Shown: positions 1 through 34,248 of the stretch, in pieces
How positions within the stretch are numbered: position 1 is the first letter of the stretch
Layout: each line of letters starts with the position of its first letter
Origin: Nitrospinaceae bacterium
GTDB taxonomy: Bacteria > Nitrospinota > Nitrospinia > Nitrospinales > VA-1
Direction of reading: 5' to 3'
NCBI GenBank assembly: GCA_029261455.1
Contig: JAJDBH010000139.1
Span: forward strand, 12,922 to 76,921
Length of the DNA stretch: 64,000 bases
Made by a program: the position numbers and the translations under genes
The notes under the pieces: generated by a model
Seen by the model: only the letters and a program-made list of their open reading frames with translations
The model's database searches: none
What the model was told of the DNA's origin: nothing

Positions 1-2039
1 TTTGCTTGGCGATCAACGGCGCCTACGGAAATATAACGGTTACCAGCATAATCGTTATAAGCGAGCCCAAACTGGGCTTCCAAAAAGTTATTACCAGAAT
101 TGTATGTCCCGTAAACTGTCCCCTGATAACTATTGATATCGGTTTGGTTTTCTGAGAGTCGGGAGTTTACATCTGTATACGAATAGCTTGCTGCGAGACC
201 TAAAAGGAAAGTATTACTGGTTTGCTTGTCTGCCCCAAAGGCAAAACCCCCTGTACTCGCTTCGAAACCTTGAATCCCTTGACGCTCGCTCTGGTCTACA
301 TAAGCTCCAAATCCCTGAAGCCAAAAGTTGTTTCCCTCACTCACATCATCGCCTGCTGAAAGACCTTGGCCAGCGGAGATTCCTGTTCGCAGACTCGCAA
401 GTCGATAAGACACCGTGTTCAAGGGAGCTCTTCCTGCCAATACGGTGCCGATGACGGAACCACCATCGACAACCGGCGCTAACGATTCCAAAGCCGTCCC
501 CTCTTCTGAGGAACCCGCTAAACCATTCAACGCTGACGACAAAGTAGAATCGCCGGCAAAGGCCACATCAACTACTTCATTGACCGCCGTTGCATTACTG
601 CTCATATCAGTTGTGACTGCTGTGGGAGTGAGCTCAAGGTTGTTACCGTTCAGCGCCAGGGTAAAATTATATTGCGAATTATTGTCGGTTACAGTAATGC
701 CTGTCACCACACCCACCCCTAATCCTATATCTCCATCACCATCATTATCGATGAGTATGACGATAGCTGTTCCTGAGGTGAGGTTTCCGCTGACTGTCGG
801 AACAATGGAGGTTCCTGAGACTAACGTTGCCCCGCCTGTCACCACCAATTGACCGTTGGTATTGCCAATAGTGACTCCAAGTTTAGCAGAGGCTCCAAAT
901 GTGACCGTGCCAGAAGCTGTAACGGTTGATGTCCCGACATCAATGGTGCCCGAAGTCCCGGCTGCTGTCAGAGAGCCCGTAATAGTTGTGGAGGCTTTGG
1001 AGAATTTCAAGGTCGCTAAATTACTGATCGTTGTTGTTGTAGCTTTGAGATCGCCAGCAAAAGTCACGGTTTTACCACTACCTTGAATATTGACAGCATT
1101 CAGTCCCACACCGGTCGAGCCCACATCGCCACTGAAGGTGCTAGCCCCGACAACATTCAAGATCCCCTGGTTAGTCGTCGTGTTTGTGATCGCGCCAGTA
1201 ATATTCGCGCCATCAGAAACACTTATCGTTCCATTTGCGGCAAAGTCTATAGTACCCTTGACCGTGCCGTTGAAGGTTGTTGTATTTGTGCTTGAAATAA
1301 TAATCGCATCGGCATCCACAGTGCCATTGAAAGTTGCAGTTGTGTTTGCCCCAATATTCAAAATATCTACTGCCGCCGTAGCACCAATACTCTGAGAAAA
1401 TGCGATCGTATTAGCACCACCCTGAGAATTATTGACATTCATGGTGATCGTATCTAGTGTATTTGAAGCATTGATAGAAGCATCAAATATAATATTTTCA
1501 ATATTTACCGTATCAAAAGTGAGAGACAACGTAGAGGTTCCCGTGCCACCCACTATGGCAATTGAGTTTGTTCCGCCTCCTGACGTTGTCGCATTACCCT
1601 GAAAAGTAATATTGTCGTTTGTGGCGGTAATGGTCAAACTATTGGTGTTAGCAGTACTGCTCACTACAAGGTCATCGGCAAAAACAACCCCATTTGTAGT
1701 GCCTGAAGTTGTAACACTGATTCCTTGAGTAGTATTGCCGGTTGATTCAGTGAGCGTGAAAGAATCACTCGGGGTTATATTATTACCAAGAGTAACCACA
1801 CCCGTATCACTATCAATAATGATATTGGTCGATGCCGCTTCGTTGGATTCAATGAGCCCGCCTGACAAAGTTGCCCCAGCGCCACCGATTGTTGTCGCAG
1901 TGATCGTGTTGCCGTTGGTCACTTCATTTAGCCCATTGGCTGCTATTACCTGTTTGGCAGAATTAACGATTAGGAATATTGACGACAAAAGAATAGCCGA
2001 AAGTCTGACACTAAAATTATTTTTTTTTAGCGAACCCAT
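1..2039 (-). CDS. Autotransporter/adhesin-like repeat protein, N-terminal ~680 codons (3' end runs off the left edge)
   Basis: Absent from the ORF track because there is no in-window stop. ATG at 2039 is preceded by an SD-like GGGAGAAAGA. The N-terminus MGSLKKNNFSVRLSAILLSSIFLIVNSAKQVIAANG looks like a signal peptide. The frame had no stops in the five 60-nt blocks I spot-checked (1-180, 1021-1080, 1681-1740). The body is T/V/N/G/A/I-rich and passenger-like. The left end (..EAQFGLAYNDYAGNRYISVGAVDRQA) resembles beta-barrel strands. Confidence 0.6.
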   Translation of the reverse strand, partial: MGSLKKNNFSVRLSAILLSSIFLIVNSAKQVIAANGLNEVTNGNTITATTIGGAGATLSGGLIESNEAASTNIIIDSDTGVVTLGNNITPSDSFTLTESTGNTTQGISVTTSGTTNGVVFADDLVVSSTANTNSLTITATNDNITFQGNATTSGGGTNSIAIVGGTGTSTLSLTFDTVNIENIIFDASINASNTLDTITMNVNNSQGGANTIAFSQSIGATAAVDILNIGANTTATFNGTVDADAIIISSTNTTTFNGTVKGTIDFAANGTISVSDGANITGAITNTTTNQGILNVVGASTFSGDVGSTGVGLNAVNIQGSGKTVTFAGDLKATTTTISNLATLKFSKASTTITGSLTAAGTSGTIDVGTSTVTASGTVTFGASAKLGVTIGNTNGQLVVTGGATLVSGTSIVPTVSGNLTSGTAIVILIDNDGDGDIGLGVGVVTGITVTDNNSQYNFTLALNGNNLELTPTAVTTDMSSNATAVNEVVDVAFAGDSTLSSALNGLAGSSEEGTALESLAPVVDGGSVIGTVLAGRAPLNTVSYRLASLRTGISAGQGLSAGDDVSEGNNFWLQGFGAYVDQSERQGIQGFEASTGGFAFGADKQTSNTFLLGLAASYSYTDVNSRLSENQTDINSYQGTVYGTYNSGNNFLEAQFGLAYNDYAGNRYISVGAVDRQA

Positions 2040-9799: not shown

Positions 9800-10747
9800 A
9801 TGGAACAATACGATTTCAAAATAGACTCAGCTGCCAGCCGGGAACGGCTTGACGTTTTTCTATCCACCCAACAGACAGAGATCAGTCGGTCGCGACTGAA
9901 AAAACTGATTATTGAAGGCCGAGTTACGGTCAACGGTGTGGTGCGACCTGTTGGATATAAAGTTCGGGAAGGAGACCAAGTCACCGTTCAGGTTCCTGCC
10001 CCGGTTCCTCTCGACACTGTGGCAGAACCCATCCCGCTGGATATTATTTTTGAAGATGAATATTTCCTTGCCCTGAACAAACCCGCGGGCATTGTGGTTC
10101 ACCCCGCACCGGGGCATTATACGGGGACACTGGTTAATGCATTACTGCATCATTGCAAAGACCTGTCGGGGATTGGCGGGGTCGAGAGACCCGGCATTGT
10201 ACACCGGCTCGATAAAGACACCTCGGGACTGGTCATGGTTGCCAAAACCGAAGCCGCACACAAAAATCTGGCAGCACAATTCAAGAAACGCGAAATCCAC
10301 AAAGAATATCTTGCCTTCGTGAAAGGCAATGTTAAAAAGGATACAGGTTCAATCCATACCAGCATCGGTCGGCATAAAGTTCACCGTAAAAAAATGGACA
10401 CAAGAGCCTCAAACGGCCGGGAAGCCTACACGGAATATCAGGTCGTACATCGAGGCAAAGATTGGTCTTATCTGAAGCTCTGGCCTAAAACAGGAAGAAC
10501 CCATCAAATTCGGGTTCATTTGGCTTCGATCCACCACCCCGTAATCGGGGATCAACTTTATGGTGGGAAGTCCCCTAAGCTGAAAATGCCCAGACAGGCT
10601 TTGCACGCTCATAAATTGGAATTAAAACACCCGATTTCGGGCTCAGGCTTATCATTTCAAGCACCACTTCCATCAGATATGGAAATCTTCCTACAATCCC
10701 ACGGGTATTCCTCCTCTGAAAAAATTGACGCCCTGCTAGAACAATAA
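9800..10747 (+). CDS. rluD: 23S rRNA pseudouridine synthase, RluA/RluD family
   Basis: N-terminal S4 domain (RLDVFL..SRSRLKKLI..GRVTVNG). Catalytic HRLDKDTSGL. Also GRTHQIRVH. Confidence 0.9.
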   Translation: MEQYDFKIDSAASRERLDVFLSTQQTEISRSRLKKLIIEGRVTVNGVVRPVGYKVREGDQVTVQVPAPVPLDTVAEPIPLDIIFEDEYFLALNKPAGIVVHPAPGHYTGTLVNALLHHCKDLSGIGGVERPGIVHRLDKDTSGLVMVAKTEAAHKNLAAQFKKREIHKEYLAFVKGNVKKDTGSIHTSIGRHKVHRKKMDTRASNGREAYTEYQVVHRGKDWSYLKLWPKTGRTHQIRVHLASIHHPVIGDQLYGGKSPKLKMPRQALHAHKLELKHPISGSGLSFQAPLPSDMEIFLQSHGYSSSEKIDALLEQ

Positions 10748-10816
10748 AGTTCACTCACCAACCAGACTAAAGCGTAATATTTCAAGTTCTCTCACGGTTC
10801 CTGATTGTGAGTTATT

Positions 10817-11391
10817 TGTGGAAAATTTTTGAATATCAGCGTTCTGATATTTTAAAATCCCCCTCAGCAAAAGATTCTCCTTGGAAGACTGAGAAATATC
10901 TCTTTGCTTTCAATGATTTAAATTTTCCTCACATTCATGTCGAATAACTACCGACCCAAAAAGAGGAGTCTGTGGTTTTTCCACAATTTTCAAGTTTAAA
11001 AAAAATTTAAAACAGATGCCTATAATAGGGGGAAGGAAAGGGTATCAAAATCCCGTCAGGCTTTTCCCCCTATAATCAGTCCGTCAAAAAACATTGCAAC
11101 ATCGACATTATGATTTAACCCTCTGGAGGCTTAGATGTAGGGGGAAATAAGGTACCCGAATTTTGACGCTTGATTTGCCCTTAATATATCTGAACAAACC
11201 AAATTCGACTCCCTTATTGCCTAGGTAAAGCCAATGGTTTAAGGGTGTTGAGTAAACATCATCAAGATCAACCTTTGCAGCGGGGTTTATTCTCTATACT
11301 CATCTCAATTCTCTTGCCTGACAAGGGTTTCAAAGGGCCCCCATATCAGGGAAAATCTTTTCCACATTATTTGTGCAAAACCTGTGGAAAA
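10817..11391. promoter_or_regulatory. Cluster of five DnaA-box matches (TTWTNCACA) with an adjacent A/T-only tract; candidate oriC or DnaA-binding locus
   Basis: TGTGGAAAA 10817-10825, TTTTCCACA 10977-10985, TTTTCCACA 11358-11366, TGTGCAAAA 11372-11380, TGTGGAAAA 11383-11391. AT-rich tract (one C, three G in 30 nt) at 10986-11015. No ORF of 60 aa or more in 10748-11607. Confidence 0.5.
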
Positions 11392-11607
11392 CAGCAGGTA
11401 CACTTTCTCTAACACACGATAATTAAAGGCTTTTGGGGTTCCCGATTAGAAACTACGCAACCCGAACAACTCTTTGATTTTTAACAATATTTCAAAGTCT
11501 TCGTTCTAAAGATAAAGGGTGCATCTAATAAAGTTTCTCTTGGCAGGTTTTTTGCGATTTCCGGGAGGGTTTTACGACTTTATTGATTGATGCCAGTTAA
11601 GCCCAGG

Positions 11608-12123
11608 CTAGGCACAGCATTTTTTATATTTTTTTCCACTCCCACAGGGGCAAGGGTCATTTCTGCCAATTTTGGCTTCACTACGAACAACAGTTTTGGG
11701 CTTCACCAGAGGCGAGGTCGCGACAGGAGGCAAGGTAGAATCTTTACGACTATAAACCCAACGACCATTGACTTTATAAAAACGAGAGGATTCTCTCAGG
11801 GTTTGTTCAGCATCTTCCTTAGTATAATAGGCAACAAAATCTACCTGCCCCTCAGAGTCTTCATGACCACCGGCTCGGGTATTCACAATTTCCAGCCTCT
11901 TCCAAACCACCTCGTCGTCGATCAGGTCTGGCCCCAGCCTGGCCATTTCTTTTTTTTCTTCAGGGTGACTGGTAATAACCAGATATTCCCAGTTTTTCTG
12001 AGTGAACGCGGTATAGCGCGACCGCATCAGATCCTCAGCCGTATCAGCGTATCCGGTACCTCGGATCAATAGGCCACAACAATCAGTAAAGGGGGAGTTC
12101 GAACCACAGGGGCAATCTTTCAT
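11608..12123 (-). CDS. SEC-C motif protein, YchJ/UPF0225 family
   Basis: N-terminal CPCGS..FTDCC and C-terminal [22 protein letters not shown] zinc motifs flank an NTF2-like middle. Confidence 0.8.
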
Positions 12124-12853: not shown

Positions 12854-13459
12854 ATGGTAACGGGAATGATATCAGCAAAAGATTTTAAGAATTTAGGACA
12901 ACTCCTTAAATCTCGAGAAGGTTTCACTTTAATTGAAACCATAATGGTTTTAGCGGTCTTCGGAGTAATCATGGCGATCGCAACTCCAAATTTTTCAAAA
13001 TGGAAAGAGAAACACGAGATAAACGGTCAAGCACAAAAGGTCTATTTTGATTTGATGTTGGCTCGCACCTCTGCTGTCAAAAATAACAATATCGTTAGAG
13101 TCGCTTTCAACACGACTAGTCACACCTACACAATTCATAACGACACCAATGAGGACGGCATCCAAGACTCTGGAGAGGCTGTGAAATCCGTAGCCTTGGA
13201 AAATGATATAAATTTCGCTTACAACACCGGAAACGATGTGGATGGCAATGCCATTGGCGCAGCTGTTTCCTTTGGCGGTTCCACAACAGTTACTTTCGAC
13301 TCCCGAGGCCAGTCCAACGCGAGTGGTTCGGTGTTCTTATTGCACACGAGTGATATCGGCAGCACTAATGACCGCGCACGTTCCATCAGTGTACTTCAGG
13401 CTACCGGTGCTGTGGATTACTGGACTTATGATGGAAGCGTTACGCCTCCTTGGAAATAA
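12854..13459 (+). CDS. GspH/FimT-like minor pilin (prepilin-type N-terminal methylation domain)
   Basis: ..KSREG|FTLIETIMVLAVFGVIMAIA. Class III signal with Glu5. About 200 aa. Confidence 0.8.
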   Translation: MVTGMISAKDFKNLGQLLKSREGFTLIETIMVLAVFGVIMAIATPNFSKWKEKHEINGQAQKVYFDLMLARTSAVKNNNIVRVAFNTTSHTYTIHNDTNEDGIQDSGEAVKSVALENDINFAYNTGNDVDGNAIGAAVSFGGSTTVTFDSRGQSNASGSVFLLHTSDIGSTNDRARSISVLQATGAVDYWTYDGSVTPPWK

Positions 13460-13461
13460 AC

Positions 13462-13974
13462 ATGAAAAACTTAACCAGCATTGCAGTGGACATGGATCAA
13501 GATCAGAAGGGATTCACATTGATTGAAGTGGTGGTCAGCATGGTCATTCTGTCCGTGGGTATTTTTGGCCTGATTAAAACCGCCAGTTCGGTCATTTATC
13601 ATCAGGATAATTCCAGATTGATCACCGAGGCCACGTTGAAAACCACAAATAAAATTGAGAACACAAAGCGTTACGGAGCGAATGAGCCCACAGGAGGCGC
13701 GTATGGTTTTAACTACCTCACGACTGATTATTTAACGGATGAAGTTTTCGCTGAAATCACTGACCAGAACTATAGAAAAATTGAGACCGACGGGGATTTC
13801 ACCATCACCACAAATCTCCAAGTTTATCCTTCAAGCTCGTCCGAAAACTTTGATGACCCGACATCAATACATATGCTGGAAGTAGTGGTCACAACAGTAT
13901 GGACTGACAGCCGGGGGCAAAGCAAAAATGTGGAAATGGCATCGGTACTTCACAGGAGGCAATTCATAGAATGA
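13462..13974 (+). CDS. PilV-like minor pilin
   Basis: MKNLTSIAVDMDQDQKG|FTLIEVVVSMVILSVGIFGL. I prefer the ATG at 13462 to the TTG at 13450. Confidence 0.75.
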   Translation: MKNLTSIAVDMDQDQKGFTLIEVVVSMVILSVGIFGLIKTASSVIYHQDNSRLITEATLKTTNKIENTKRYGANEPTGGAYGFNYLTTDYLTDEVFAEITDQNYRKIETDGDFTITTNLQVYPSSSSENFDDPTSIHMLEVVVTTVWTDSRGQSKNVEMASVLHRRQFIE

Positions 13975-15770
13975 TGAAAACGCATTTAAAACTAATTCGA
14001 CAGGAACGAGGAAGTACCCTAGTTGTGTATATGTTTGTTCTGGCTGCAATGGCAGCAATTGCTATTGCTTCATTGCAGACAATCACATTAAACCTCGAAT
14101 CCTCTCACTCCCATAAAAAAGGAAGAAATGCCTTTTATTCTGCCGAGGTCGGGCTCGACCTGGCCGTGAACGATATCATCTCTGAGTTTGAGAACCTTAG
14201 CGTCTACACAACTTCAGCCGATGATTCGAGCTCAGATGCTAACGGTTTTATTTCCGTCGCCGATTACCGCAACTATGCTGTCAATTATAATATAACCAAC
14301 CCGGTCGAGCGATTTCTCTATCAGACAGTGGTGGGAAATACCATTATCTATCATTACGCTCACACCTTCGATATTCAAGCTAACTCAACATCACTCAAAG
14401 ATTCCTCCAGAGAAACCGTGAACGAACAAATTCGGGTTCTGGAGACCCCTCTAGTCCAGTACTATATCTTTTATGGTGGATCAGGAAACGATGCCGATCT
14501 GGAAATTCTTCCAGGACCAACTATGAATAGTTGGGGACGGATTCATTCAAACAGCGACATATATATTGGCGCCGGTAGCACGTTTAACCTGAGAAATTAC
14601 GATACCGATAATAACTTGTCACCACACTCCATCGTTGCTGCGGGAAACATCTATTTGAAACGTAAAAACAATGGAAGCCCTTACGCGAATAACAAAGTCT
14701 ATGTAAAAACCTCTAACACGGGAACCACTTTTTCCCCCACTCAAAATATTGCAGCAACAATCAATTCTGTCAACGAGGACACTGAGGAAATCCGTTTCAA
14801 CAATTACCTCCTTATCAATGAAGAACCTTATTCAGTTCCCAGTCAAACCTTGTTCAAACGAGGTGCTTTTTACGAAAGCCGGTCTGGCGACCCACAACGA
14901 ACAACCATTGATGGAATAACGATTGTCGGCACAGGAGGTGTCGGTACCGGAAACATAGAGGTTTATGTTTCCCGGCCTAACGCCAACACCAATGTCACCG
15001 CTCTGGTTGCAGCGATGGAGTCTTCAACGGGAACGTCCACCGGTTTGGCTGACGCGATTACAGAAACAACTTCAGCCTTCCGAGACTGCCGAGAGGAGCG
15101 GGACGTCGACACCACGAATATCGACCTCAATCTCCTGGAGTTATGGTACGAAGAATATCTAGCCGATCAAGGTCTAAGTTTAGCGGGCGATGGCATACTG
15201 ATTTATACCTCTCGCTCTCCAGATGCAACGTATACAAATAGCGACACCAATCTTCAGGCCATTCGTCTGATGAAACTTGATACCACCTCAGCCCCCCAAT
15301 TATCCGATGAAACAACAGTTGCTACTGACAACCCTGTTTATATCCAGGGTGATTTCAATACCATTGATACCAAGGGCGTAGCAGTCATCAGCGATGCTCT
15401 CAATATTCTCTCTAACAGTTTCACTGGAAGAACATCTTGCAGTAGCAAAACAGACGCAACCACGACCACCCTCAATGCAGCATTCTTCGGCGGTAATGTT
15501 CCCACTCCTGCTGGGGGTGGGAACTACAGCGGAGGACTTGAAAATTATCCACGGTTTCAGGAAAGATGGAGTGGCATTGATTGCAATATCCGGGGAAGCT
15601 TTATCAACCTGTGGACCAGTTCCCAAGCTACAGAAAGATGGGGAAAATCAAATGTATATAACCCTCCGGGCCGTGCCTGGGGCTGGGATGTTCGGTTTCA
15701 GGACCCTGATTTCTGGCCGCCTTTTATTCCTTCCATCTTCAGTGTGGAGCGGGTGGGCTTTCTCGAATAG
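13971..15770 (+). CDS. Giant PilX-N-terminal-domain pilus protein (599 aa)
   Basis: ERGSTLVVYMFVLAAMAAIAIASLQ...AFYSAEVGLDLA is a PilX_N-like hydrophobic helix without Glu5. ATGA overlap with the upstream gene. C-terminus: GGLENYPRFQERWSG...PPGRAWGWDVRF. Confidence 0.7.
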   Translation: MMKTHLKLIRQERGSTLVVYMFVLAAMAAIAIASLQTITLNLESSHSHKKGRNAFYSAEVGLDLAVNDIISEFENLSVYTTSADDSSSDANGFISVADYRNYAVNYNITNPVERFLYQTVVGNTIIYHYAHTFDIQANSTSLKDSSRETVNEQIRVLETPLVQYYIFYGGSGNDADLEILPGPTMNSWGRIHSNSDIYIGAGSTFNLRNYDTDNNLSPHSIVAAGNIYLKRKNNGSPYANNKVYVKTSNTGTTFSPTQNIAATINSVNEDTEEIRFNNYLLINEEPYSVPSQTLFKRGAFYESRSGDPQRTTIDGITIVGTGGVGTGNIEVYVSRPNANTNVTALVAAMESSTGTSTGLADAITETTSAFRDCREERDVDTTNIDLNLLELWYEEYLADQGLSLAGDGILIYTSRSPDATYTNSDTNLQAIRLMKLDTTSAPQLSDETTVATDNPVYIQGDFNTIDTKGVAVISDALNILSNSFTGRTSCSSKTDATTTTLNAAFFGGNVPTPAGGGNYSGGLENYPRFQERWSGIDCNIRGSFINLWTSSQATERWGKSNVYNPPGRAWGWDVRFQDPDFWPPFIPSIFSVERVGFLE

Positions 15771-15794
15771 TCATCGAACAACGAGGGACATAAA

Positions 15795-17540
15795 ATGAAT
15801 CAGTCATCAAAAAAATCAAAATGGGGAATGAATGAGCGCGGATTCACCATGGCCGAATTGCTAATAGGGTCTGCAATCTCATTAATCATGCTTGGCCTCG
15901 TGGCAGGGATCATTTCTTCGCAAAAGAATACTTTCTCACGGCAGAGCCAGTTAGGCCAAATGCAGGCCAACGGTAGAGCTTCTGTTGACTTTATAACCCG
16001 TAGCGTCCAGAACGCAGGCTACAACGTCACCCGAGGCAAAAGATTTCTCGCCGCATCCGACCATTACATCACCATGGTTTTTGATGACGACAATGACGGC
16101 ACAATTCAAAATGATGAAGTCATGACTTATGCCGTCTCGAATCCCGACAACTCTACCCTCAGCCCCCCCTTCTCGATCAACCCCTATTTTGATGACGATG
16201 GAGATGGTGAGGTAGACAGCACAGAAACACGGCCCTACTCAATTTCTCTAGGCTTGGAAAATCCTCCATTTCACTTTTATCGCATCACTCCTGATCAAGG
16301 GACTTCAGATGTCACAAAAAGTAAAGTGGCTCGCAATATCGACAACTTGATCATCCGCTATTGGGATAAAAATGGGGACCCTCTGCCAATAGACGTCGCC
16401 ACTGATGCTGACGAAAATCCGGTTCCGCCTTACACCCTTTTAGCCAGCGAATTAAATGAGATTAGAAAGGTGACTATTGAAGTCGTTACAAGGTCCAAGG
16501 ATGAAGACCCCAACGAAAACTACGTGAACAGCGGCACGTATTATACGGGCAGTGTTGCTACTGCAGGAGGCACAACTGCTTATAGCGACCGCTACCATCG
16601 TGAAACTTACACAGCAGTCACCTCCCCAAGAAACCTGGTCACCGCTCCTTGGGGAAAAATCAATTTAGTGGCTAATCCCACACCGGTCAATTGCCCGGAC
16701 ACTTCGACCACCATTACTGCGAGCGTTCTGGATTCAGAAGGAACTGGCATTGACGGTTTGAACGTCAACTTTAACACCAGTGATGGCACAGTAAGCCCGA
16801 CGATCTCGAGTCCTACAAGTAGCGCAGGAGAAACAACCACAACCTTAACTTATGACTGGTCATCACCCAGCGTTACGGCGACTCTTTCCGCCAACACGCT
16901 AATTGATGTGGATGGAGAAGAATACCCGGTATTCAGTGCTATTCCAGTGTCTTTTGAATCGGGGACCGGTATTTTTCAAGATAACTTTGAAAGTGGAAAT
17001 AGCGATGACTGGACCGAAGGAGGTACTGCCAACTGGAATGTTGCAGCGGGTCAATACAAAACGGCCTCCAACGGATTTGCTTTCTCCCGCAATGGATGTG
17101 CAGCCTGGCAGGATTATGTAGCCCAGGTAGATATCAAGCGCAATGGTTCATTAGGCTCGTCGGGTGAATATGTAAGCCTTGTTCTAAGATATCAAAATGA
17201 CAACCAATATTACATGGCAAAAATATCCTGTTCAAGCAACTGCAGCGGAGGTAATCCAAACGATGACTTGTATGTTTTGGAACTGGTAAGTTATGACAGT
17301 GGTGAAACCACTCTGATCAGTTCCTCCACTTTTACTTTTACCAATAATACGTACTATACCCTTATGGCCAGTGCCAACGGAGATGAACTCAAGGCTAAGT
17401 TCTGGGTAGCAGGCACAGCTGAACCTGCCGCCTGGGACATTACTATAACTAACACTGACTATTCCCAGGGAGAAATTGCTTTGACCACAATAACAAGCAC
17501 CACAACCTTTGATGAGGTAGTCGTCACCCCGGCTTCATGA
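15795..17540 (+). CDS. PilW-like minor pilin fused to Ig-like and LamG/lectin-like C-terminal domains (581 aa)
   Basis: NERG|FTMAELLIGSAISLIMLGLV. An Ig-like segment (TTITASVLDSEGTGIDGLNVNFNTSDGTVSP) lies at about 16675-16895. A jelly-roll-like C-terminus (FQDNFESGNSDDWTEGG..WQDY..LVLRYQNDNQYYMAKI..FDEVVV) lies at about 16968-17537. Confidence 0.7.
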   Translation: MNQSSKKSKWGMNERGFTMAELLIGSAISLIMLGLVAGIISSQKNTFSRQSQLGQMQANGRASVDFITRSVQNAGYNVTRGKRFLAASDHYITMVFDDDNDGTIQNDEVMTYAVSNPDNSTLSPPFSINPYFDDDGDGEVDSTETRPYSISLGLENPPFHFYRITPDQGTSDVTKSKVARNIDNLIIRYWDKNGDPLPIDVATDADENPVPPYTLLASELNEIRKVTIEVVTRSKDEDPNENYVNSGTYYTGSVATAGGTTAYSDRYHRETYTAVTSPRNLVTAPWGKINLVANPTPVNCPDTSTTITASVLDSEGTGIDGLNVNFNTSDGTVSPTISSPTSSAGETTTTLTYDWSSPSVTATLSANTLIDVDGEEYPVFSAIPVSFESGTGIFQDNFESGNSDDWTEGGTANWNVAAGQYKTASNGFAFSRNGCAAWQDYVAQVDIKRNGSLGSSGEYVSLVLRYQNDNQYYMAKISCSSNCSGGNPNDDLYVLELVSYDSGETTLISSSTFTFTNNTYYTLMASANGDELKAKFWVAGTAEPAAWDITITNTDYSQGEIALTTITSTTTFDEVVVTPAS

Positions 17541-17619
17541 CGACTAACAAACACCACAACCATTAAGAATGTAGTCTTCTCCCCAACCGAGAAAAGGAAA
17601 CGCTCTATCAGTCCTTTTA

Positions 17620-17647
17620 GCGCAACCCCCTTTTGTGGGGGTTGCGC
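17620..17647 (+). terminator. Perfect 11-bp-stem hairpin between the two pilin modules
   Basis: GCGCAACCCCC-TTTTGT-GGGGGTTGCGC, followed within 8 nt by CTTTTTCC. Confidence 0.6.
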
Positions 17648-17711
17648 GACAAACTTTTTCCTCCATACTTATAAGGTCATAGCTAGACACAATTAATCTA
17701 GAGATCTAATA

Positions 17712-18149
17712 ATGAACCCCTTAAAAAATAATTCCGGTTTTAGTCTCGTTGAAGTTCTCATTGCGGCTCTGATCATTGTGGCAGGTCTGATTGCTTACGT
17801 TATGACATCGGGAAATGTTATTGGTAAAAATGCGCAAAGTAAAAAAGAGTCCGTAGCTGTAACTCTGGCTCAGGACAAAATGGAGTCTATAAGAAATACT
17901 GCTTTAACTGTTTCTTTATCAGGGGCAGATACATTGGCCTCTCCGACTGAATCTGGAGGAGTCTGGACTGCCAACGCTGGAGGAGAGGTGGTTGATGTGG
18001 ATGGGAATACAGGAACTACAGAAGCTATTTATACTCGTTCATGGACGATTACTGAAGATGCCACATTGACGAATTTTCACACTGTATCTGTATCGGTTTT
18101 ATGGGACAGCAATCAAACGATCAGTCTGGATACTCTGATTTCTCAATAA
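17712..18149 (+). CDS. PilV-like minor pilin
   Basis: MNPLKNNSG|FSLVEVLIAALIIVAGLIAYV. 145 aa. Confidence 0.75.
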   Translation: MNPLKNNSGFSLVEVLIAALIIVAGLIAYVMTSGNVIGKNAQSKKESVAVTLAQDKMESIRNTALTVSLSGADTLASPTESGGVWTANAGGEVVDVDGNTGTTEAIYTRSWTITEDATLTNFHTVSVSVLWDSNQTISLDTLISQ

Positions 18150-18159
18150 TGGTTAACTT

Positions 18160-18933
18160 ATGATATATACCTCTAAAAACTTACAAAATGAGCGTGGGTT
18201 CACCTTGATTGAAATGATGATCGCTGGGGTTCTCGGAGTTCTTATTTTAGGTGCGGCAGTATATGTATTCACTAAGCAAGAGACTGTTTTAAAAACGGAA
18301 AATGCTTCCACCAATATACGGGCCAAAGGGCGCCACGCAATTAAAGTGCTTGTTCAGGAGTTGAAGGAGATTGGATTTGGATTGCCTCCGACAGAAGGAT
18401 TAGTTGCCCCAAGTCCCGTAGCAAACTCTTCAACGATTACCTACCGCGCCAATTTAAGTGATGTGCGTGCTACCACACCTCCAAGCGCAGCAAATGGAGG
18501 AAGCTTAAACGATACAGACATCGATGTTGTTGATGATGGTGACGACTTCAGCGATAACGATAAAATCATTATTTATAATCCAAGCTATGGAGATTCAGAG
18601 CTGAACACAGTGAGTGGAACGCCTACAACCACAAACATTCCCTTGGGAAGTGGTTTAGCAAATAATTACTCCTATGGGGCAAGTTCTAAACTTGTGACCA
18701 TCAATAAATATAATGATGTTGTGATTGATTTAAATGGTACGAATATTAGGAAAACAGTCGACGGAGGAACCCCCATCACCCTTATAGGCGATGTGTCTGA
18801 CCTAACTTTTGATTTTTATGGGGTGACTCAAACGGCTCTAGTTACCACAATAGGAATTACGATCACTTTGCAGGACCCTTCCGATTCAGCTATCACTCAG
18901 GATTTCAACACTGACATTACCTTAAGGAATTAA
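18160..18933 (+). CDS. PilW-like minor pilin
   Basis: NERG|FTLIEMMIAGVLGVLILGAAVYVF. 257 aa. Confidence 0.7.
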   Translation: MIYTSKNLQNERGFTLIEMMIAGVLGVLILGAAVYVFTKQETVLKTENASTNIRAKGRHAIKVLVQELKEIGFGLPPTEGLVAPSPVANSSTITYRANLSDVRATTPPSAANGGSLNDTDIDVVDDGDDFSDNDKIIIYNPSYGDSELNTVSGTPTTTNIPLGSGLANNYSYGASSKLVTINKYNDVVIDLNGTNIRKTVDGGTPITLIGDVSDLTFDFYGVTQTALVTTIGITITLQDPSDSAITQDFNTDITLRN

Positions 18934-20270
18934 TGCATATGCCAAAAGATAATGTGTTTAAAAATTTGAGTTGTCGGAGAACTCTTTTCAGGGCAGGTTA
19001 TCTTTCCAATCAAAATGGCATTGCTCTTGTTACGGGTTTGATTTTTATGCTTCTGATGACACTGCTAATGTTTACAGCTATTAAATACTCTTCATCAGAT
19101 ATCACCCGCACAAAAAATTACACCGAAACCCGTCAGGCAACCTACATAGCCGAAGCAGGAATTCATCGGGCCTTAAACTATTTCAATTATGATGGCTCCG
19201 GTAACAGCCCGGGAGAAGCGAGCAATGGTTTTAATGACGAACTGGACAGCAGCAACTGGCCTGCTGGAACGTTTACCAACATTGCTCTTGGTAGTAATGG
19301 AGGGACTTATTCAGTTGTTATTAGTGACAACTCTGATGGCACAGCTACTACTAGTGATGCTGACAACACAGTTATCCTTACTTCTACCGGAACTATAAGT
19401 GGAGTCACAGCCGTCATCGAAGCGATCATTTATCGGCCTTTGTTTATATCTCAGTATGCCATTTTATCTGAAGGGGATGTCAAGATTGCCGGAAGTTCAA
19501 CAACGATTCAAGGATCAAGCGGATCTGTACACACCAATAGCGATTTCACCCAATCGGGGGGCCCCACAATCAGTGGAGGAGCAAACGCATCAGGGACTTG
19601 TTCAGGGGACCAGTGTGATAGTTCTGGCGCACCCGTTGAGTATGTCCCGGTTCTTGAGCCTTCGGACTATGAACAATATGCGGATTACATATTTAACTCA
19701 GATGGAACTATTGACCAGAGAAATTCCGACTCAAGCATCACAACAGGTGTTGAAGGGAATGTAATATTTTCCAAATTTTCCCATAATAGCCAAGGTTGGT
19801 CCGTGGGCAATAGTTCGACGGTTGGGACTACTATTCCAAATCAGGCCAACCTTTATTTTAAAGACGATTTTAAAGCCACATCTGTTGGCGATTCAACCAC
19901 ACCGTGGGAAGTTACCTTAATCGTAGAAAAAAGTATTTCCTGGACGGGGAACGCATACATTACAAACTGGAAAGATACATCCCTTTCACCGGATCTGCAA
20001 AACCTGTTTTTAATTGCAGGAAATGATATCAAGATGAGTAGCATGGAGCAGGACACCCAGGGCTTGATCGCCTGTAAAGATCAGGCATCCCTTTCTGGTG
20101 GTGCGAACATTGAAGGGTATCTTATCTCAAACAATTTAACCACTTCGGACAACACAGTTAATGGAACAGAGACCGATGGTTCTGGTGGCTTGACCCTTAC
20201 CTATAATGGGGACTTGGCTGCACCAGTATTGAATAATAAAGTGTCTATTCTTTCCTGGCAGCAAACTTAA
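18933..20270 (+). CDS. Large PilX-N-terminal-domain pilus protein (445 aa)
   Basis: NQNGIALVTGLIFMLLMTLLMFTAI...ATYIAEAGIHRALNYF is PilX_N-like with no Glu5. Its start overlaps the upstream stop (TAATG). Confidence 0.65.
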   Translation: MHMPKDNVFKNLSCRRTLFRAGYLSNQNGIALVTGLIFMLLMTLLMFTAIKYSSSDITRTKNYTETRQATYIAEAGIHRALNYFNYDGSGNSPGEASNGFNDELDSSNWPAGTFTNIALGSNGGTYSVVISDNSDGTATTSDADNTVILTSTGTISGVTAVIEAIIYRPLFISQYAILSEGDVKIAGSSTTIQGSSGSVHTNSDFTQSGGPTISGGANASGTCSGDQCDSSGAPVEYVPVLEPSDYEQYADYIFNSDGTIDQRNSDSSITTGVEGNVIFSKFSHNSQGWSVGNSSTVGTTIPNQANLYFKDDFKATSVGDSTTPWEVTLIVEKSISWTGNAYITNWKDTSLSPDLQNLFLIAGNDIKMSSMEQDTQGLIACKDQASLSGGANIEGYLISNNLTTSDNTVNGTETDGSGGLTLTYNGDLAAPVLNNKVSILSWQQT

Positions 20271-28629: not shown

Positions 28630-29877
28630 TCAAAAAAGTTTAAGCATGTTTACATCTGTTTCTTCACAAGTTCCCTGATATTGTTCAGCCCATTTGGAAA
28701 CCCGGTGAGCAAGCCCAACTTCATTCAAATATTCCTGATCAATTTTCAAGGGTAAGTCTAAATAGGCCGCACCAATATCCTCCTCTTCAAATGCATTGGC
28801 AACATGAAGGAAAGTAAGTGGGGAGAGCGTGTTTGTTGAACATTCTGTAGGGTTTTCATGAAACAAGATGGCCTCCACAATAGGATCTGGGAGACCCCAG
28901 AGGCCAACAAGATAAGCACCGATTTTTGCATGGCTAAAGCCAAACACCTCTTCTTCAAGGTCATAGTTACTTCGATCTTGATTCCTTAGTTTTAGCTCTA
29001 AAAACTCTTTAAACTTATCTGGAAAATTCAAGATCATAATAATTTTTCCGATCTCATGAAGCAACCCCGCCGTGAAGGAAAAGTTTTGAATTTCCTGGCC
29101 CGCCCCTTCTTCACGTGAAAGCAACATTGCTATTGCCGCGACGGCAACGCTGTGTTTCCAAATTCGATCAATAAATATTTTCCCCGACTTAAACTCACCA
29201 AGTTTGGAAAACACCTCATATGTCAAAACCAGATTTTGAATCAAATCTATTCCGAGAATTTGAACAGCGTGTATGGGGCTGGAAATCTTTTGAGAGTACC
29301 CAAAGAACCCAGAGTTGGCGACTTGAAGAATCTTTGATGTCATCCCCATATCCTGAGAGATTATTTCGCCAATTGATTCCAGTGAGGAGTCCGACGACCC
29401 CAATTCATCCATCAACTTACAATACAAATCCGGCAGGCTCGGAAGAGAATTGATTTCCAAAAGAAGCTTCTTTATTTCTAAATTACTATTCAAATAACTT
29501 CTTAAGGAAACCCCTCTGTTAACTGCATCTTTTAAAACCTCAAAATCGCAGGGTTTAGCCAGAAACTGGTGCATGGAGCCTAGTGAACGGAGAAAAACCC
29601 TTTCCTCGGCCTGCCCCGATAAAACAAACCGCATGGTTTCAGGATAGTTGTTCTTAACTGTCGTTAAAAGTTCCGCTCCATCCATTTCCGGCATGCGCAT
29701 ATCCGACACCACTAGATCAAAATCCTTTTCTGACAGAATACTTAAAGCCTCCTTGCCGCTACCTGCAAATTCACAGTCCCATTCTTTACGCATGGACCTA
29801 AGCGAACGAGATAACCCTTGCAACATGATTACTTCATCATCCACAAAAAGGATTTTAATTTTACTCGTGGCGGACAT
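28630..29877 (-). CDS. Response regulator with REC and HDOD domains
   Basis: ILFVDDE..DLVVSDMRMPEMDG..RFVLSG is the REC domain. This is followed by an HDOD-like LPSLPDLY...HSVAVA...GLLHEIGK. Confidence 0.85.
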   Translation of the reverse strand: MSATSKIKILFVDDEVIMLQGLSRSLRSMRKEWDCEFAGSGKEALSILSEKDFDLVVSDMRMPEMDGAELLTTVKNNYPETMRFVLSGQAEERVFLRSLGSMHQFLAKPCDFEVLKDAVNRGVSLRSYLNSNLEIKKLLLEINSLPSLPDLYCKLMDELGSSDSSLESIGEIISQDMGMTSKILQVANSGFFGYSQKISSPIHAVQILGIDLIQNLVLTYEVFSKLGEFKSGKIFIDRIWKHSVAVAAIAMLLSREEGAGQEIQNFSFTAGLLHEIGKIIMILNFPDKFKEFLELKLRNQDRSNYDLEEEVFGFSHAKIGAYLVGLWGLPDPIVEAILFHENPTECSTNTLSPLTFLHVANAFEEEDIGAAYLDLPLKIDQEYLNEVGLAHRVSKWAEQYQGTCEETDVNMLKLF

Positions 29878-29917
29878 TTAGCTTTCTCCTTTCACAAACA
29901 TAGTTCTTACCCCGAAA

Positions 29918-31393
29918 TCAGTCTGAAACCTTTATCTGTTTTTGTAATAACGGAAGCTTGATTCGAAAAGTAGTCCCAACTCCTAATTTCGATTCAAAAT
30001 TAATTTCCCCCTGATGCTTTTTGACAATGATCGCATGAACAATTGCCAGCCCCTGGCCGGTTCCCTTACCAACCTCTTTAGTAGTAAAAAATGGGTCAAA
30101 TATTTTTTGCTGAATACTTTCAGGAATTCCCCTGCCTGTATCAGAAACTGAAACCTCCACCCATTTTCCTCGCAATTTGGTTGAGATGTTAATGGTCTCG
30201 GTTTTTTTGGGGTCACACTCTCTCTTTTCCTTGATGGAATGCACTGCATTGATGATCAAATTCAACATCACTTGATTGAAGTCATTCAAATAACAGGGAA
30301 CAAGTGGTAACTCCATGTCCAAACTCACAACCACTTCAGCCACATATTTCCATTCGTTTCTGGATACATTCAGGGTAGTGTTAATACTTCTATTGATATC
30401 ACTGGGCCTTTTTTCATCCAAACCTGGGTGAGAGAATTCCTTCAAGGCTTGAACAATTTTATTCACTCGATCAATTCCTTCCAAAGACTGATTGATTGCC
30501 TCAGGTATCTCATCCACCAAATAATCAAACTCCTTTTCTCTTCTTTTTTCCTCTATTAATTTTAATTGCTCTGGAGAGAATAACCTTTCTTTATTATTAT
30601 CAATGAACTGAATATGTTCTTTGAATAAACTCAAAACATCAAAGAAGGAATCCCTAAGAAAACGGGCATTATCACCGATGTACTGCAACGGAGTATTAAT
30701 TTCGTGAGCGATGCCAGCCGCCATTTGCCCAATGGACTCCATCTTTTGCGCATGGTTAAGTTGAACCTGCATCAGTTTACGCTCCGTCACATTCTCTCCA
30801 ATTCCCATAAGCCCCATTAATTTTCCACTGCCATCAAACTGGGGTGATATGGCCAAATTCACCCAAATAGTTTTTCCAGACTTAGTTCTCTCTTCTATTT
30901 CAGAAACTAATCCATTACCATTTTGAATAACTGATTTGATATGACTGGAAATTATTTTTTTTGTTTTTTCATTTGCATAGATAAACTCAATATCTTGTTT
31001 ACCCACCATTTCCTCTGCCGTATACCCAAGCATTCTTTCTGCTCCCTTATTCCAGAAGATCACTCTTCTATTAAGGTCAGTGGAAATTATGGATATATTG
31101 GTGGGACTATTGAGAATATTGTTTAAAAACTCGTTTGTTTGTTGGATTTTTTCACCTTCGTTATCTTTCACTTTGATTTCATTTTTATAACTGGCATTTT
31201 TAATAATCTCCCCTGCTAATTCAGCCACCTTTTCTGGAAGGTCTAACTCTTCATCCATTTTCAACGATTCAAGCTCCTTTTTAACAACTGCAAGTTGAAG
31301 CTTGAATCTATGTCTCTGGATAATCAATTTAACGAAAACCAGAACAACTCCAAATATAGCTAATACACTGATTATAGTTATCGTGTATTTCAT
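29918..31393 (-). CDS. Membrane-anchored PAS sensor histidine kinase
   Basis: N-terminal TM segment and PAS domain (RRVIFWNKGAERMLGYTAEEMVGK). H-box AAGIAHEINTPL. N, G1 and G2 boxes (DTGRGIP, GKGTGQGL). Confidence 0.85.
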   Translation of the reverse strand: MKYTITIISVLAIFGVVLVFVKLIIQRHRFKLQLAVVKKELESLKMDEELDLPEKVAELAGEIIKNASYKNEIKVKDNEGEKIQQTNEFLNNILNSPTNISIISTDLNRRVIFWNKGAERMLGYTAEEMVGKQDIEFIYANEKTKKIISSHIKSVIQNGNGLVSEIEERTKSGKTIWVNLAISPQFDGSGKLMGLMGIGENVTERKLMQVQLNHAQKMESIGQMAAGIAHEINTPLQYIGDNARFLRDSFFDVLSLFKEHIQFIDNNKERLFSPEQLKLIEEKRREKEFDYLVDEIPEAINQSLEGIDRVNKIVQALKEFSHPGLDEKRPSDINRSINTTLNVSRNEWKYVAEVVVSLDMELPLVPCYLNDFNQVMLNLIINAVHSIKEKRECDPKKTETINISTKLRGKWVEVSVSDTGRGIPESIQQKIFDPFFTTKEVGKGTGQGLAIVHAIIVKKHQGEINFESKLGVGTTFRIKLPLLQKQIKVSD

Positions 31394-31404
31394 CGTATTA
31401 ATTA

Positions 31405-32637
31405 TTACTCTCCATATCCAACAAATTCTGTCTTAGACCCCACGTTTATGACAGGAATTGTCAGGTTAAAAGTAGAGCCCACGCCAACTTTACTTTCCAC
31501 CCAAATATCTCCCCCCAAAAAATGAGCCAGACTCTTACTTATTGCCAACCCAAAACCTACCCCTCTATATCTCCGCTCAACAGATGAATTCCCTTGCGAA
31601 AAAGGTTCAAATAGATCTTCAACCTGTTTTTCTGTCATGCCTACTCCAGTGTCAGAAATTTCAAAACTGATGAAGTTGTTTTTTAATTTTTTACGCAGCA
31701 CAGTTAGAGTTATTTGGCCTGCATCAGTGAACTTGATCGCGTTTTCCATCAAATTTAATAAAATTTTCTTAACTTTTTCCCTATCCGAATATATTTTTGC
31801 CCCTTCCAAATCTCCTTCATAAAAAATGGCTAGCTTTTCTTCATCGATCAAGGGTTGCAAAGCTATATCTATCTCACCCATTAACTTATCCAGTCCAAAA
31901 TGAACCTGATTTAACTTCATTTTTCCAGTATCAATTCTGGAAAAATCTAGAACACCCTCTATAATTTTCAACAAATATCTTCCCGCTTTATTGATCCTTT
32001 TTAAATCAGGAACAAACTCAAGCGCTTCATTTTTTTTCTTTAGATTTAAAGAAATCACTTCACTAAATCCGATAATGGTATTTAAAGGAGTTCTCAGCTC
32101 ATGACTTATATTTCTTAGAAATACACTTTTCGTCTGCCTGGCTAACTCGGCTTCATGCTGAGCTTTTTCCAGTTTTTCATTGACCGCCACTAACTCCCGA
32201 GTCCTTTCATTGACCCTCTGCACAAGAGTTGCATTAAATTTAGTTACTTGATCTAAATACTCTTTCTGAAGAAGAGTGCTTAACAGGCGTGCTATAAGCG
32301 CTTCGAATTGAATTGGTTTATACAATACATCTGTGGCACCCAGTTTTATGGCACGGTGTTTTAGCTTCACGTCATCTTTTCCAGTTATCATAATTACAGG
32401 AATCGTATGCGCCTGAGTTCCATTTTTTATAAATTTTAACAACTCCATTCCATCTGTTCCCGGCATGAAGATATCAGAGATAATGACATCAATATTATTC
32501 CCCCTGATATTTTGAAAAGCTTGGGGCACACTTGTTGCCAGAATCAATTCCCAATCCTGCTCACACGGTCTTAGTAGTCTAGCTATGCTAGCCAAAAAAT
32601 TTTTATCGTCATCTACAAAAAGCAATTTTTTCTTCAT
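31405..32637 (-). CDS. REC-histidine kinase hybrid
   Basis: KKLLFVDDD..DVIISDIFMPGTDG is the REC domain. Coiled-coil linker. H-box ISHELRTPLN. DTGVGM, GVGFGL. I prefer the ATG at 32637. Confidence 0.85.
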   Translation of the reverse strand: MKKKLLFVDDDKNFLASIARLLRPCEQDWELILATSVPQAFQNIRGNNIDVIISDIFMPGTDGMELLKFIKNGTQAHTIPVIMITGKDDVKLKHRAIKLGATDVLYKPIQFEALIARLLSTLLQKEYLDQVTKFNATLVQRVNERTRELVAVNEKLEKAQHEAELARQTKSVFLRNISHELRTPLNTIIGFSEVISLNLKKKNEALEFVPDLKRINKAGRYLLKIIEGVLDFSRIDTGKMKLNQVHFGLDKLMGEIDIALQPLIDEEKLAIFYEGDLEGAKIYSDREKVKKILLNLMENAIKFTDAGQITLTVLRKKLKNNFISFEISDTGVGMTEKQVEDLFEPFSQGNSSVERRYRGVGFGLAISKSLAHFLGGDIWVESKVGVGSTFNLTIPVINVGSKTEFVGYGE

Positions 32638-32850
32638 AGTTACCAACTAAATTTCAGATGAATTATTATTTTCCCCACTGACCCAGTAACTCATACCAAG
32701 CAATAAGTGAGCCAAAAGCATAAAAATAGTAATCCACACTATATCAATGGTTTACAACCAGGCTGGCGCTAGCGAGAGTTTATTAACTTAACGAAATCCC
32801 GTTATCAGTACTCTTTGTTGACGGGTTTCCGTTAGTAATGCGAGGGGATG

Positions 32851-34248
32851 CTATATGAAGGCTTTTCGATGGAGCTCAAATTTTCGCATCTTGTCACGGA
32901 GTGTTTGGCGGGGGATTTTAAGAGTGCTAAGAGTTTTTTTGATATTACCTTTGTTGCGAATTAATTCATTTTCAATCAATTTCTTTTCAAATTCAAAGAC
33001 TCTTTCATGAAGAGTTGAGCCTTCCACTTCCATGGCGGATGCTAAATCACTATCCATTTCTGGAGCAATCATCAAATCATCCGCCATGCCAAGGACATAT
33101 TTTCCCGCTTCATTTTTCAATTCACGGACATTTCCTTCCCAGGTACGGTTATATAATTTCTTATAATAATCACGAGATATCTCGGGAACTTGCTTTTTAT
33201 GGTTCTCACAACCTTGCTGCACAAAATGTTGAAACAAAAGAGGAATATCTTCTTTACGAGTTCGAAGTGGGGGCAAGCAAATCTGAATCACATTTAGCCG
33301 ATAAAACAAGTCCAAGCGAAATTGGTTCTGTTTGCAGGCTTTTTTCAAATCAACCTTAGTGGCCGCAATAACCCTTATATCTATAGGGACTAGTTTGTTG
33401 GACCCCATTCTTTCAACAACCCTCTCCTGCAAAACTCGCAGTAGCTTAACCTGCATATTAAGTGGCATGCTCTCAATCTCGTCAAGGAAAACAGTCCCTC
33501 GATTTGCATGTTCAAATTTCCCTATACGCTTCTGACTTGCCCCGGTAAATGCCCCTGCTTCATGACCGAAAAGCTCACTTTCAAAAATCGATTCCGGAAT
33601 AGCACCACAATTTATAGCAACAAAAGGGTGATCACGTCTTTCACTTTGATCATGCAAACACCTTGCAACCAAGTCTTTACCAGTTCCCGTTTCGCCGTAT
33701 ACCAGAACATCCGACTGCGAACCTGAAACATTTTCAATGATCTTCCTAAGCTGCTCCATAACCGGTGAGCTACCAAGCAAGGTCAATGAGTTTTGGTCAT
33801 ATCTTGCTATTTGAGCGCGAAGTTTTCTTAACTCCAATACAAACCGTCTTTTTTCCAAAGCATGTTCCATTACCTTTTGAAACAATTCAAGCTCAACGGG
33901 TTTTTCCAGAAAGTCGTAGGCTCCGTCTCTAATAGCATCTACAGCCATTCGAATATTTCCTCTCCCAGTGACAAGAACAACAGGTAGATCCTGATCGAAG
34001 CTTTTCACTTTTTTCATCAATGTCAATCCATCCATACCGGGCATCATGATATCGGACACAACAATACCCGGCCAGTCTCTCGTCAGACTGGAAAGTGCCT
34101 TTTGGGCAGAATCAAAAGTCTGAACATCCAACCCTACTCTCCTGAGGTTTCTTTTGTAGGCTTGTCCTAATTTCAGGTCATCATCAACCATCATTATTTT
34201 CCCACTGGAACTCATACTTTTTGGACGTACACCAACTAATTCGCGCAT
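32851..34248 (-). CDS. Sigma-54-dependent response regulator (NtrC family)
   Basis: REC domain (IMMVDDD..VVSDIMMPGMDG). AAA+ domain with GETGTGKD and GAFTGA. C-terminal Fis-type HTH. Start codon uncertain (34248, 34215 or 34194). Confidence 0.9.
   Translation of the reverse strand: MRELVGVRPKSMSSSGKIMMVDDDLKLGQAYKRNLRRVGLDVQTFDSAQKALSSLTRDWPGIVVSDIMMPGMDGLTLMKKVKSFDQDLPVVLVTGRGNIRMAVDAIRDGAYDFLEKPVELELFQKVMEHALEKRRFVLELRKLRAQIARYDQNSLTLLGSSPVMEQLRKIIENVSGSQSDVLVYGETGTGKDLVARCLHDQSERRDHPFVAINCGAIPESIFESELFGHEAGAFTGASQKRIGKFEHANRGTVFLDEIESMPLNMQVKLLRVLQERVVERMGSNKLVPIDIRVIAATKVDLKKACKQNQFRLDLFYRLNVIQICLPPLRTRKEDIPLLFQHFVQQGCENHKKQVPEISRDYYKKLYNRTWEGNVRELKNEAGKYVLGMADDLMIAPEMDSDLASAMEVEGSTLHERVFEFEKKLIENELIRNKGNIKKTLSTLKIPRQTLRDKMRKFELHRKAFI

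Follow-up and report, generated by a model that had tools for sequence, protein, structure and literature searches.

What does a dense cluster of DnaA boxes do in a long non-coding gap between two convergent genes: start replication, control the initiator elsewhere on the chromosome, regulate transcription or encode an RNA? The question is raised by an 860-bp gap in a 64-kb stretch of DNA that was analysed as a whole (hereafter the window), the source organism of which was placed in Nitrospinota through its RluD homologues. The gap lies between the convergent genes rluD (9800-10747, plus strand), whose product carries PseudoU_synth_2 and S4 domains, and a YchJ/SEC-C gene (11608-12123, minus strand); both gene ends and the length of the gap were confirmed as given in the initial annotation, which had proposed a candidate oriC or DnaA-control locus.

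The consensus TTWTNCACA occurs nine times across the whole window and five times within the gap, exactly at the positions and on the strands first described (given below). All four exact copies of TTTTCCACA are confined to the gap, with none in the rest of the window, which bears out the earlier impression of a 9-mer absent elsewhere. Shuffling the gap 20,000 times with dinucleotide frequencies preserved gave 0.127 matches on average and at most 3, versus the five observed; the chance figure of 0.05 proposed earlier is somewhat low, while the above-chance conclusion drawn from it stands. DnaA-box clustering in the gap is real and far above chance. Just 2 bp from the first consensus box, a sixth box of degenerate sequence makes up a tandem pair with it, which brings the cluster to five consensus boxes and one degenerate box in 860 bp. 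Inside the gap no ORF reaches 60 aa, and the description of the gap as ORF-free holds for this interior, whereas one mechanically called ORF (11587-12072, plus strand, 161 aa) starts in the final 21 bases of the gap and then runs antisense through ychJ. The features are as follows.

10800-11490, unstranded: whole conserved non-coding element, a core of ~0.7 kb (18-sequence alignment and conservation profile)
10806-10814, minus strand: weak DnaA box TAACTCACA, upstream half of a tandem double box with a 2-bp spacer (consensus comparison)
10817-10825, minus strand: DnaA box TTTTCCACA, downstream half of the double box (TTWTNCACA match)
10977-10985, plus strand: single DnaA box TTTTCCACA, with a short conserved run of T after it (TTWTNCACA match and alignment)
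10986-11015, unstranded: AT-rich tract, 26/30 A+T (composition; not conserved)
11043-11055, plus strand: IHF-like site TATCAAAATCCCG, two mismatches to WATCAANNNNTTR (consensus comparison and positional conservation)
11082-11092, unstranded: conserved motif CGTCAAAAAAC, inverted partner of the GAATTTTGACGC motif (conservation profile)
11158-11169, unstranded: conserved motif GAATTTTGACGC, which includes a -35-like TTGACG hexamer (conservation profile and alignments)
11358-11366, plus strand: box I of the triple box, TTTTCCACA (TTWTNCACA match)
11372-11380, minus strand: box II of the triple box, TTTTGCACA, opposed to box I across 5 bp (TTWTNCACA match; varies or is weak in relatives)
11383-11391, minus strand: box III of the triple box, TTTTCCACA, oriented like box II, with a 2-bp spacer between them (TTWTNCACA match)
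11424-11460, unstranded: conserved block TAAAGGCTTTTGGGGTTCCCGATTAGAAACTACGCAA (alignments and conservation profile)
11467-11479, plus strand: perfect IHF consensus CAACTCTTTGATT (YAANNNNTTGATW), at +109 relative to the start of box I (consensus comparison)
past ~11490, unstranded: variable remainder, ~120 bp to the ychJ stop codon (conservation ends near 11490)

In full, the triple box reads TTTTCCACA-TTATT-TGTGCAAAA-CC-TGTGGAAAA, and the distance from box III to the right-hand IHF consensus is ~75 bp. The GTCAAAA/TTTTGAC motif is present in two strongly conserved copies (11082-11092 and 11158-11169), which are inverted, 76 bp apart and not DnaA boxes.

The same non-coding element, with near-constant spacing, is found in more than 20 relatives, among them Nitrospina watsonii and N. 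gracilis. The long non-coding gap after rluD was present in every relative fetched, namely in two circular MAG contigs of 2.3-2.4 Mb with arbitrary start points (L081 and L083), in L082, L085, L087 and L088, in fourteen metagenome contigs and in N. watsonii 347, N. gracilis and one 4.0-Mb Nitrospinota contig, the last three of which carry the same box modules. With the start of the triple box set as zero, 18 aligned relatives have the tandem pair at -552/-541, the single box at ~-380 (-369 to -391) and boxes I, II and III at 0/14/25. These positions are kept even in the most distant aligned relatives, which share only ~42% overall identity with the window, and the boxes stand out as invariant islands within diverged sequence. 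Other such islands are GGTATCAAA (11041), CGTCAAAAAAC (11082), GAATTTTGACGC (11158), TAAAGGC...CGATTAGAAAnTAnGCAA (11424-11460) and TTGATT (11474), of which CGATTAGAAAnTAnGCAA is retained even in L180, L111 and L331/L332. The left module is a double box with both members perfect in L087 and a complete triple box in L111. Across the window and its relatives the GC content of the gap is 0.33-0.41 versus 0.44-0.48 for the genome.

The IHF-like site at 11043-11055 keeps its position at -311 to -315 in most relatives, and its counterpart is a perfect IHF consensus in 9 of the 21 relatives compared, versus two mismatches in the window; the site at +109 shows zero to two mismatches in most relatives, and conservation ends ~10 bp beyond it. 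In true Nitrospina (L331/L332) both sites are degenerate, with two to three mismatches.

The neighbours of the element change. In L180, L331, L332 and L336 ychJ is absent and rodA directly follows the element, and in L111 a tmRNA gene (1346-1705, minus strand; tag ANDYDVAVAA) replaces rluD as the left neighbour. A YchJ search of the genome contigs found relatives in other phyla only, none of them above 43% identity. The persistence of the element despite these changes indicates that it is probably an autonomous functional DNA unit.

To our knowledge, control of the nucleotide state of the initiator by chromosomal sites (DARS1, DARS2 and datA) has been worked out only in Escherichia coli. We favour, at a rough probability of 0.6, the reading that DnaA and IHF would assemble in the gap, on a conserved and autonomous non-coding locus that lies away from the origin, belongs with DARS2 and datA and would tune initiator activity. 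A datA- or DARS-like site had been listed as an alternative in the initial annotation, and the triple-box geometry, the IHF site at +109 and the non-origin position all argue for it. Binding of DnaA and IHF to the element is predicted from their consensus motifs. DnaA molecules would bind the triple box cooperatively, IHF would bend the adjoining DNA and the resulting complex would alter the pool of active initiator, the preferred mechanism being a DARS2-like release of ADP from ADP-DnaA with regeneration of ATP-DnaA. The right-hand module is most likely a DARS2-like recharging site, to which the left module, the middle module and the second IHF-like site may add titration or datA-like inactivation; the effect on DnaA would be recharging, or else inactivation or titration.

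Comparison with the E. coli sites carries much of this reading. The DARS core consists of head-to-head boxes I and II across a 5-bp space (PMC6868365), and opposed boxes separated by 5 bp are found at 11358-11380 and in all relatives. Box III lies adjacent to box II and in the same direction, with a spacer of 2 bp here versus 3 bp in E. coli, where 2- and 3-bp spacers between tandem boxes are equivalent for DnaA dimer binding (PMC11317965). As read from MG1655, the DARS1 core is TTATCCACT-ATTCC-TGTGGATAA-CCA-TGTGTATTA and the DARS2 core is TTATTCACC-TTTTC-TGTGGATAG-AGT-TGTGAAGAA, each with spacers of 5 and 3. The IBS1-2 region of E. coli DARS2 extends from +93 to +121 (PMC11724364), and near-consensus IHF sites occur in the DARS2 sequence at +93 and +109, beside a PciI site that overlaps the footprinted IBS1-2. 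At the level of sequence, the window matches this layout with its perfect IHF consensus at +109; in both loci the IHF site falls ~60-85 bp past box III (+93 to +121 in E. coli, +109 to +121 here). IHF has been reported in Nitrospinae.

Further points in common with DARS2 are the opposed boxes I and II followed by a box III in tandem with box II, the non-coding, non-origin setting and, in N. watsonii, a position approximately mid-replichore if oriC is near dnaA. The Nitrospinota locus differs in its 2-bp rather than 3-bp spacer between boxes II and III, in having perfect outer boxes and a weak box II, and in its larger size (~0.7 kb), with two extra DnaA modules and other conserved motifs. We know of no Fis in Nitrospinota, the factor that E. 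coli DARS2 needs and whose sites there lie past the IHF site, and Fis sites are not expected in the locus. There is no sequence homology between the two loci outside the motifs, and the likeness is one of layout. The weak box II, the 2-bp spacer, the degenerate IHF-like sites of L331/L332 and the point about Fis weigh against the DARS2/datA-type reading.

Other DnaA sites share parts of this architecture. DARS1 has the same head-to-head boxes I and II with a 5-bp spacer and a tandem box III; however, E. coli DARS1 is IHF-independent and only ~100 bp long, and its box II is perfect and nucleating, whereas in the Nitrospinota element no box is weaker or more variable than box II. The box cluster of ColE1-type plasmid origins (pBR322) likewise combines head-to-head boxes I and II at 5 bp with a tandem box III. 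With datA the locus shares its non-coding, non-origin nature, a length of ~1 kb, a count of at least four or five DnaA boxes and an IHF site located among these boxes, which in datA is essential. The IHF-like site at 11043-11055, which has two mismatches in the window, sits between the single box and the triple box. E. coli datA differs in lacking the head-to-head triple-box core and in the layout of its essential boxes 2, 3 and 7. Non-oriC chromosomal clusters of DnaA boxes restrain initiation in Bacillus subtilis and Streptomyces coelicolor, so that such loci exist outside the proteobacteria (cited in PMC5742627). These clusters resemble the present one in lying outside oriC and differ in belonging to other phyla. 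We know of no description of DARS-type geometry or IHF involvement for them. Finally, ChIP-seq in E. coli identified the 'double DnaA box' as the site favoured by DnaA dimers (Stringer, Fitzgerald and Wade 2024, PMC11317965). Boxes II and III, like the two boxes of the left module (10806-10825), are tandem pairs 2 bp apart of this kind; the term denotes a binding unit and not a type of locus.

A less probable account, compatible with a DARS2/datA-type role and not exclusive of it, is that the element is mainly a DnaA-controlled transcription region, which would either regulate the rodA-rng operon from far upstream, coupling elongation to the replication cycle, or carry promoters of an unannotated small transcript or peptide. 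It draws on the lineages without ychJ (L180, L111, L331, L332 and L336), in which the element stands directly upstream of rodA in the same orientation, on an extra perfect box ~125 bp before rodA in Nitrospina, and on -35-like TTGACG/TTGACA hexamers, found at 11163 and also, in distant relatives, across part of the single box. In E. coli, DARS1 and DARS2 likewise occupy promoter regions, those of uvrB and mutH. In the clade of the window, however, the element lies between convergent genes and is separated from rodA by ychJ, and in the window itself also by a pilin island of ~7.4-7.5 kb, with all modules kept. The -10 elements are unconserved, a promoter scan of the gap gave nothing above chance, there is no conserved ORF or RNA structure, and metatranscriptome contigs leave 10750-11417 at ~0. 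One candidate sigma-70 promoter, TTGACG-16-TATATC (11163-11190), was rejected, its -10 being lost in distant relatives. A terminator-like hairpin at 10791-10811 is kept in close relatives only.

The origin reading, the first proposal of the initial annotation, is improbable. It holds that the gap is the chromosomal oriC lying away from dnaA, where DnaA bound to the boxes would open the neighbouring AT-rich tract, and several features would suit it: the conservation of a multi-module box cluster, the length and non-coding nature of the gap and its higher AT content relative to the genome, the fixed spacing of the boxes and the persistence of the element amid changing neighbours, the last two of which are typical of origins too, and IHF-like sites, which E. 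coli oriC also has. Clustered boxes, IHF-like sites and conserved spacing are indeed what the element shares with bacterial origins; what it lacks in comparison is a skew switch, a conserved unwinding element and a nearby dnaA.

Strand composition bears most directly on the matter. Third-codon GC skew (GC3) was calculated per gene strand over local spans of 20-64 kb. In the window, it was -0.09 for plus-strand and -0.13 for minus-strand genes on the left of the gap (replication component ~-0.11), and -0.21 and -0.15, respectively, over 52 kb on the right (replication component ~-0.18); the minus strand is G-rich regardless of gene orientation, the signature of replication-linked bias. Skew is negative on both sides in seven genomes (the window, L081, L083, L085, L087, L088 and L336), and N. 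watsonii and N. gracilis show a replication component of ~+0.09 on the left and ~0 on the right, the reverse of the origin pattern. No polarity switch of the origin type therefore occurs at the gap in any of the nine genomes, and local strand composition shows that forks pass through the locus rather than start there. As a separate observation, the replication-linked GC3 skew of the syntenic block is weakly positive in L331/L332 and clearly negative in the low-GC clade of the window (with L081-L088 and L336). Given these opposite signs, the orientation of the block relative to fork movement appears to differ between true Nitrospina and the clade of the window.

The candidate unwinding element fares no better. 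The tract at 10986-11015 is AT-rich over 30 nt as described, although it contains two C and two G rather than one C and three G, and its equivalents in 18 relatives have a mean AT content of 0.67 and a minimum of 0.39, being AT-rich only in the close relatives of the window. No conserved AT-rich unwinding element was detected in the 18 sequences, in which no position exceeds a mean AT of 0.77. The boxes of the triple box are oriented toward each other and not toward a flanking unwinding region. In a check by eye no TAG/TAA-type trinucleotide array (DnaA-trio) was seen next to any box; the published DnaA-trio rule (3'-NAN-5' x3, up to 16 bp from a correctly oriented box) is too permissive to discriminate in AT-rich DNA.

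Gene context points the same way. That no dnaA lies nearby was correctly noted, and dnaN, parAB and gidAB are likewise absent from the 64-kb window. The published genome sequence of N. watsonii (OX336137.1) takes dnaA as its start point, as chosen by its authors (PMC10112255), and in this sequence the element lies at 2.279-2.300 Mb of 3.012 Mb, ~723 kb from dnaA. We infer the position of the true Nitrospinota oriC from the local skew and this dnaA-based genome start; a literature search on the Nitrospina origin or Nitrospina GC skew returned nothing relevant. The divergence of the flanking genes, which had been read as weakly consistent with divergent replication, holds for the immediate neighbours, with the ffh/rpsP operon pointing leftward and rodA-rng rightward, but on the right it is lost after the initial 17 kb; of the 49 genes on that side of the gap, 32 have minus-strand orientation. 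A dense and conserved cluster of DnaA boxes in a long non-coding gap is thus insufficient for calling an origin, and predictors that lean on box counts could therefore mis-place oriC in these genomes.

Very unlikely is the remaining alternative, that the gap encodes a structured non-coding RNA and that its DnaA-box matches are incidental: a long ORF-free region with several conserved blocks would suit such a locus, but the conserved islands are the protein-site motifs themselves. Searches of the whole window against Rfam gave no match at the gathering threshold, with only noise in the gap at E values up to 5, and no tRNAs were found. A sliding RNAalifold scan of 12 diverse relatives on both strands yielded no consensus helix except the invariant inverted repeat of boxes I and III, and six-frame peptide comparison gave short matches in several frames on both strands around the conserved blocks and no consistent ORF. 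The gap was not found in any RNA run searched. Contigs of close relatives from four marine metatranscriptomes cover the ffh/rpsP operon, rluD and ychJ, with bins at 10750-11417 at ~0; contig depth is a poor measure of expression and the evidence is weak, yet it excludes an abundant stable RNA from the gap.

Returning to the DARS2/datA-type reading, we asked how far its central module extends beyond Nitrospinota. A scan of metagenomes for the pattern TTWTCCACA-N5-TGTNNNNAA-N2-TGTGGAWAA returned at least 120 loci (L091-L210), for which fewer than one chance match would be expected by a rough estimate. Among the matches listed there are 88 distinct 34-mers in 41 flank-homology families, with GC contents from 0.31 to 0.70, and only ~14 of these loci belong to Nitrospinota. 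Examples are:

L104, 5308-5341, unstranded: triple-box metagenome locus (pattern scan)
L118, 10651-10684, unstranded: triple-box metagenome locus (pattern scan)
L129, 13331-13364, unstranded: triple-box metagenome locus (pattern scan)

Matches to the IHF consensus pile up at +105 to +119 among the 120 matches listed, 12 of them perfect (in 5 families) and 36 with at most one mismatch, the latter in at least 11 of the 41 families listed. In almost every other 15-nt bin, 0-5 families among the matches listed have an IHF match at this threshold; the exceptional bin is +15 to +29, where box III itself resembles the IHF consensus. Five of the 120 matches listed lie beside a detected dnaA gene, and these five loci and L190 contain 5-11 perfect boxes within 400 bp, in oriC-like clusters; triple-box geometry is not exclusive to DARS. 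Most of the other matches listed are isolated triple boxes in non-coding gaps, in contexts that include MazG, a T4-like cyanophage and neighbours that we take, by eye from translated ORFs, to be rplI|dnaB and MurJ. The pile-up of IHF matches at +105 to +119 over many families suggests that a composite of the DARS2 type recurs in many unrelated contexts. We advance only tentatively, as possible and still doubtful, the broader proposal that the triple box (box I, 5 bp, box II, 2-3 bp, box III) with an IHF site ~75 bp downstream could be an ancient and widespread DnaA-recharging device, an analogue of DARS2, in Nitrospinota and at least 10 other unrelated families from soils, sediments and seawater. 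The term 'DARS-like' was not found in the literature searched.

Initiation timing in most bacteria is an open question, and the reported conservation of DARS2 is limited to nearby beta- and gamma-proteobacteria (PMC5742627). If the proposal is true, a DARS2-like module would span the distant phylum of the main marine nitrite oxidisers and many other lineages, and the question of initiation timing would become directly testable with purified DnaA and IHF.

Several minor observations accompany the scan. In the T4-like cyanophage contigs L144 (8138-8171) and L109 (2312-2345), with GC of ~0.35, the triple box reads TTTTCCACA-ATAAG-TGTTAATAA-TC-TGTGGAAAA and is followed by a fourth box at +88. It lies inside a stretch of 2.6-2.8 kb that lacks tRNAs and ORFs of at least 100 aa, next to a gene matching the Pfam family Kyano_Gp96, and this stretch may be a phage origin or a DnaA decoy. 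Head-to-head box pairs at 4-5 bp are common in phages: among viral contigs (L211-L330), convergent TTTTCCACA...TGTGGAAAA pairs favour gaps of 4-5, 14-15 and 25-26 nt; phage families predominate in this set, and it does not serve as a neutral control for the 16-nt geometry. In the high-GC contig L172 (region 2957-2991, GC 0.58), a triple box lies between two ORFs that we presume, by eye from their translations, to encode ribosomal protein L9 (rplI) and the replicative helicase DnaB; this triple box may serve DnaA control of the replicative helicase gene.

Two other regions of the window stand out. Relative to L081/L083, a pilin-like gene block of ~7.4-7.5 kb (12854-20270; N_methyl, GspH and PilX_N) is inserted between ychJ and rodA, and a similar block is present on a 372-kb JGI contig. 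Further right, 28630-34248 is a low-GC segment (0.37-0.40) with a minus-strand run of two-component and sigma-54 regulators, whose products are an HDOD response regulator, a PAS histidine kinase, a hybrid kinase and a sigma-54 activator.
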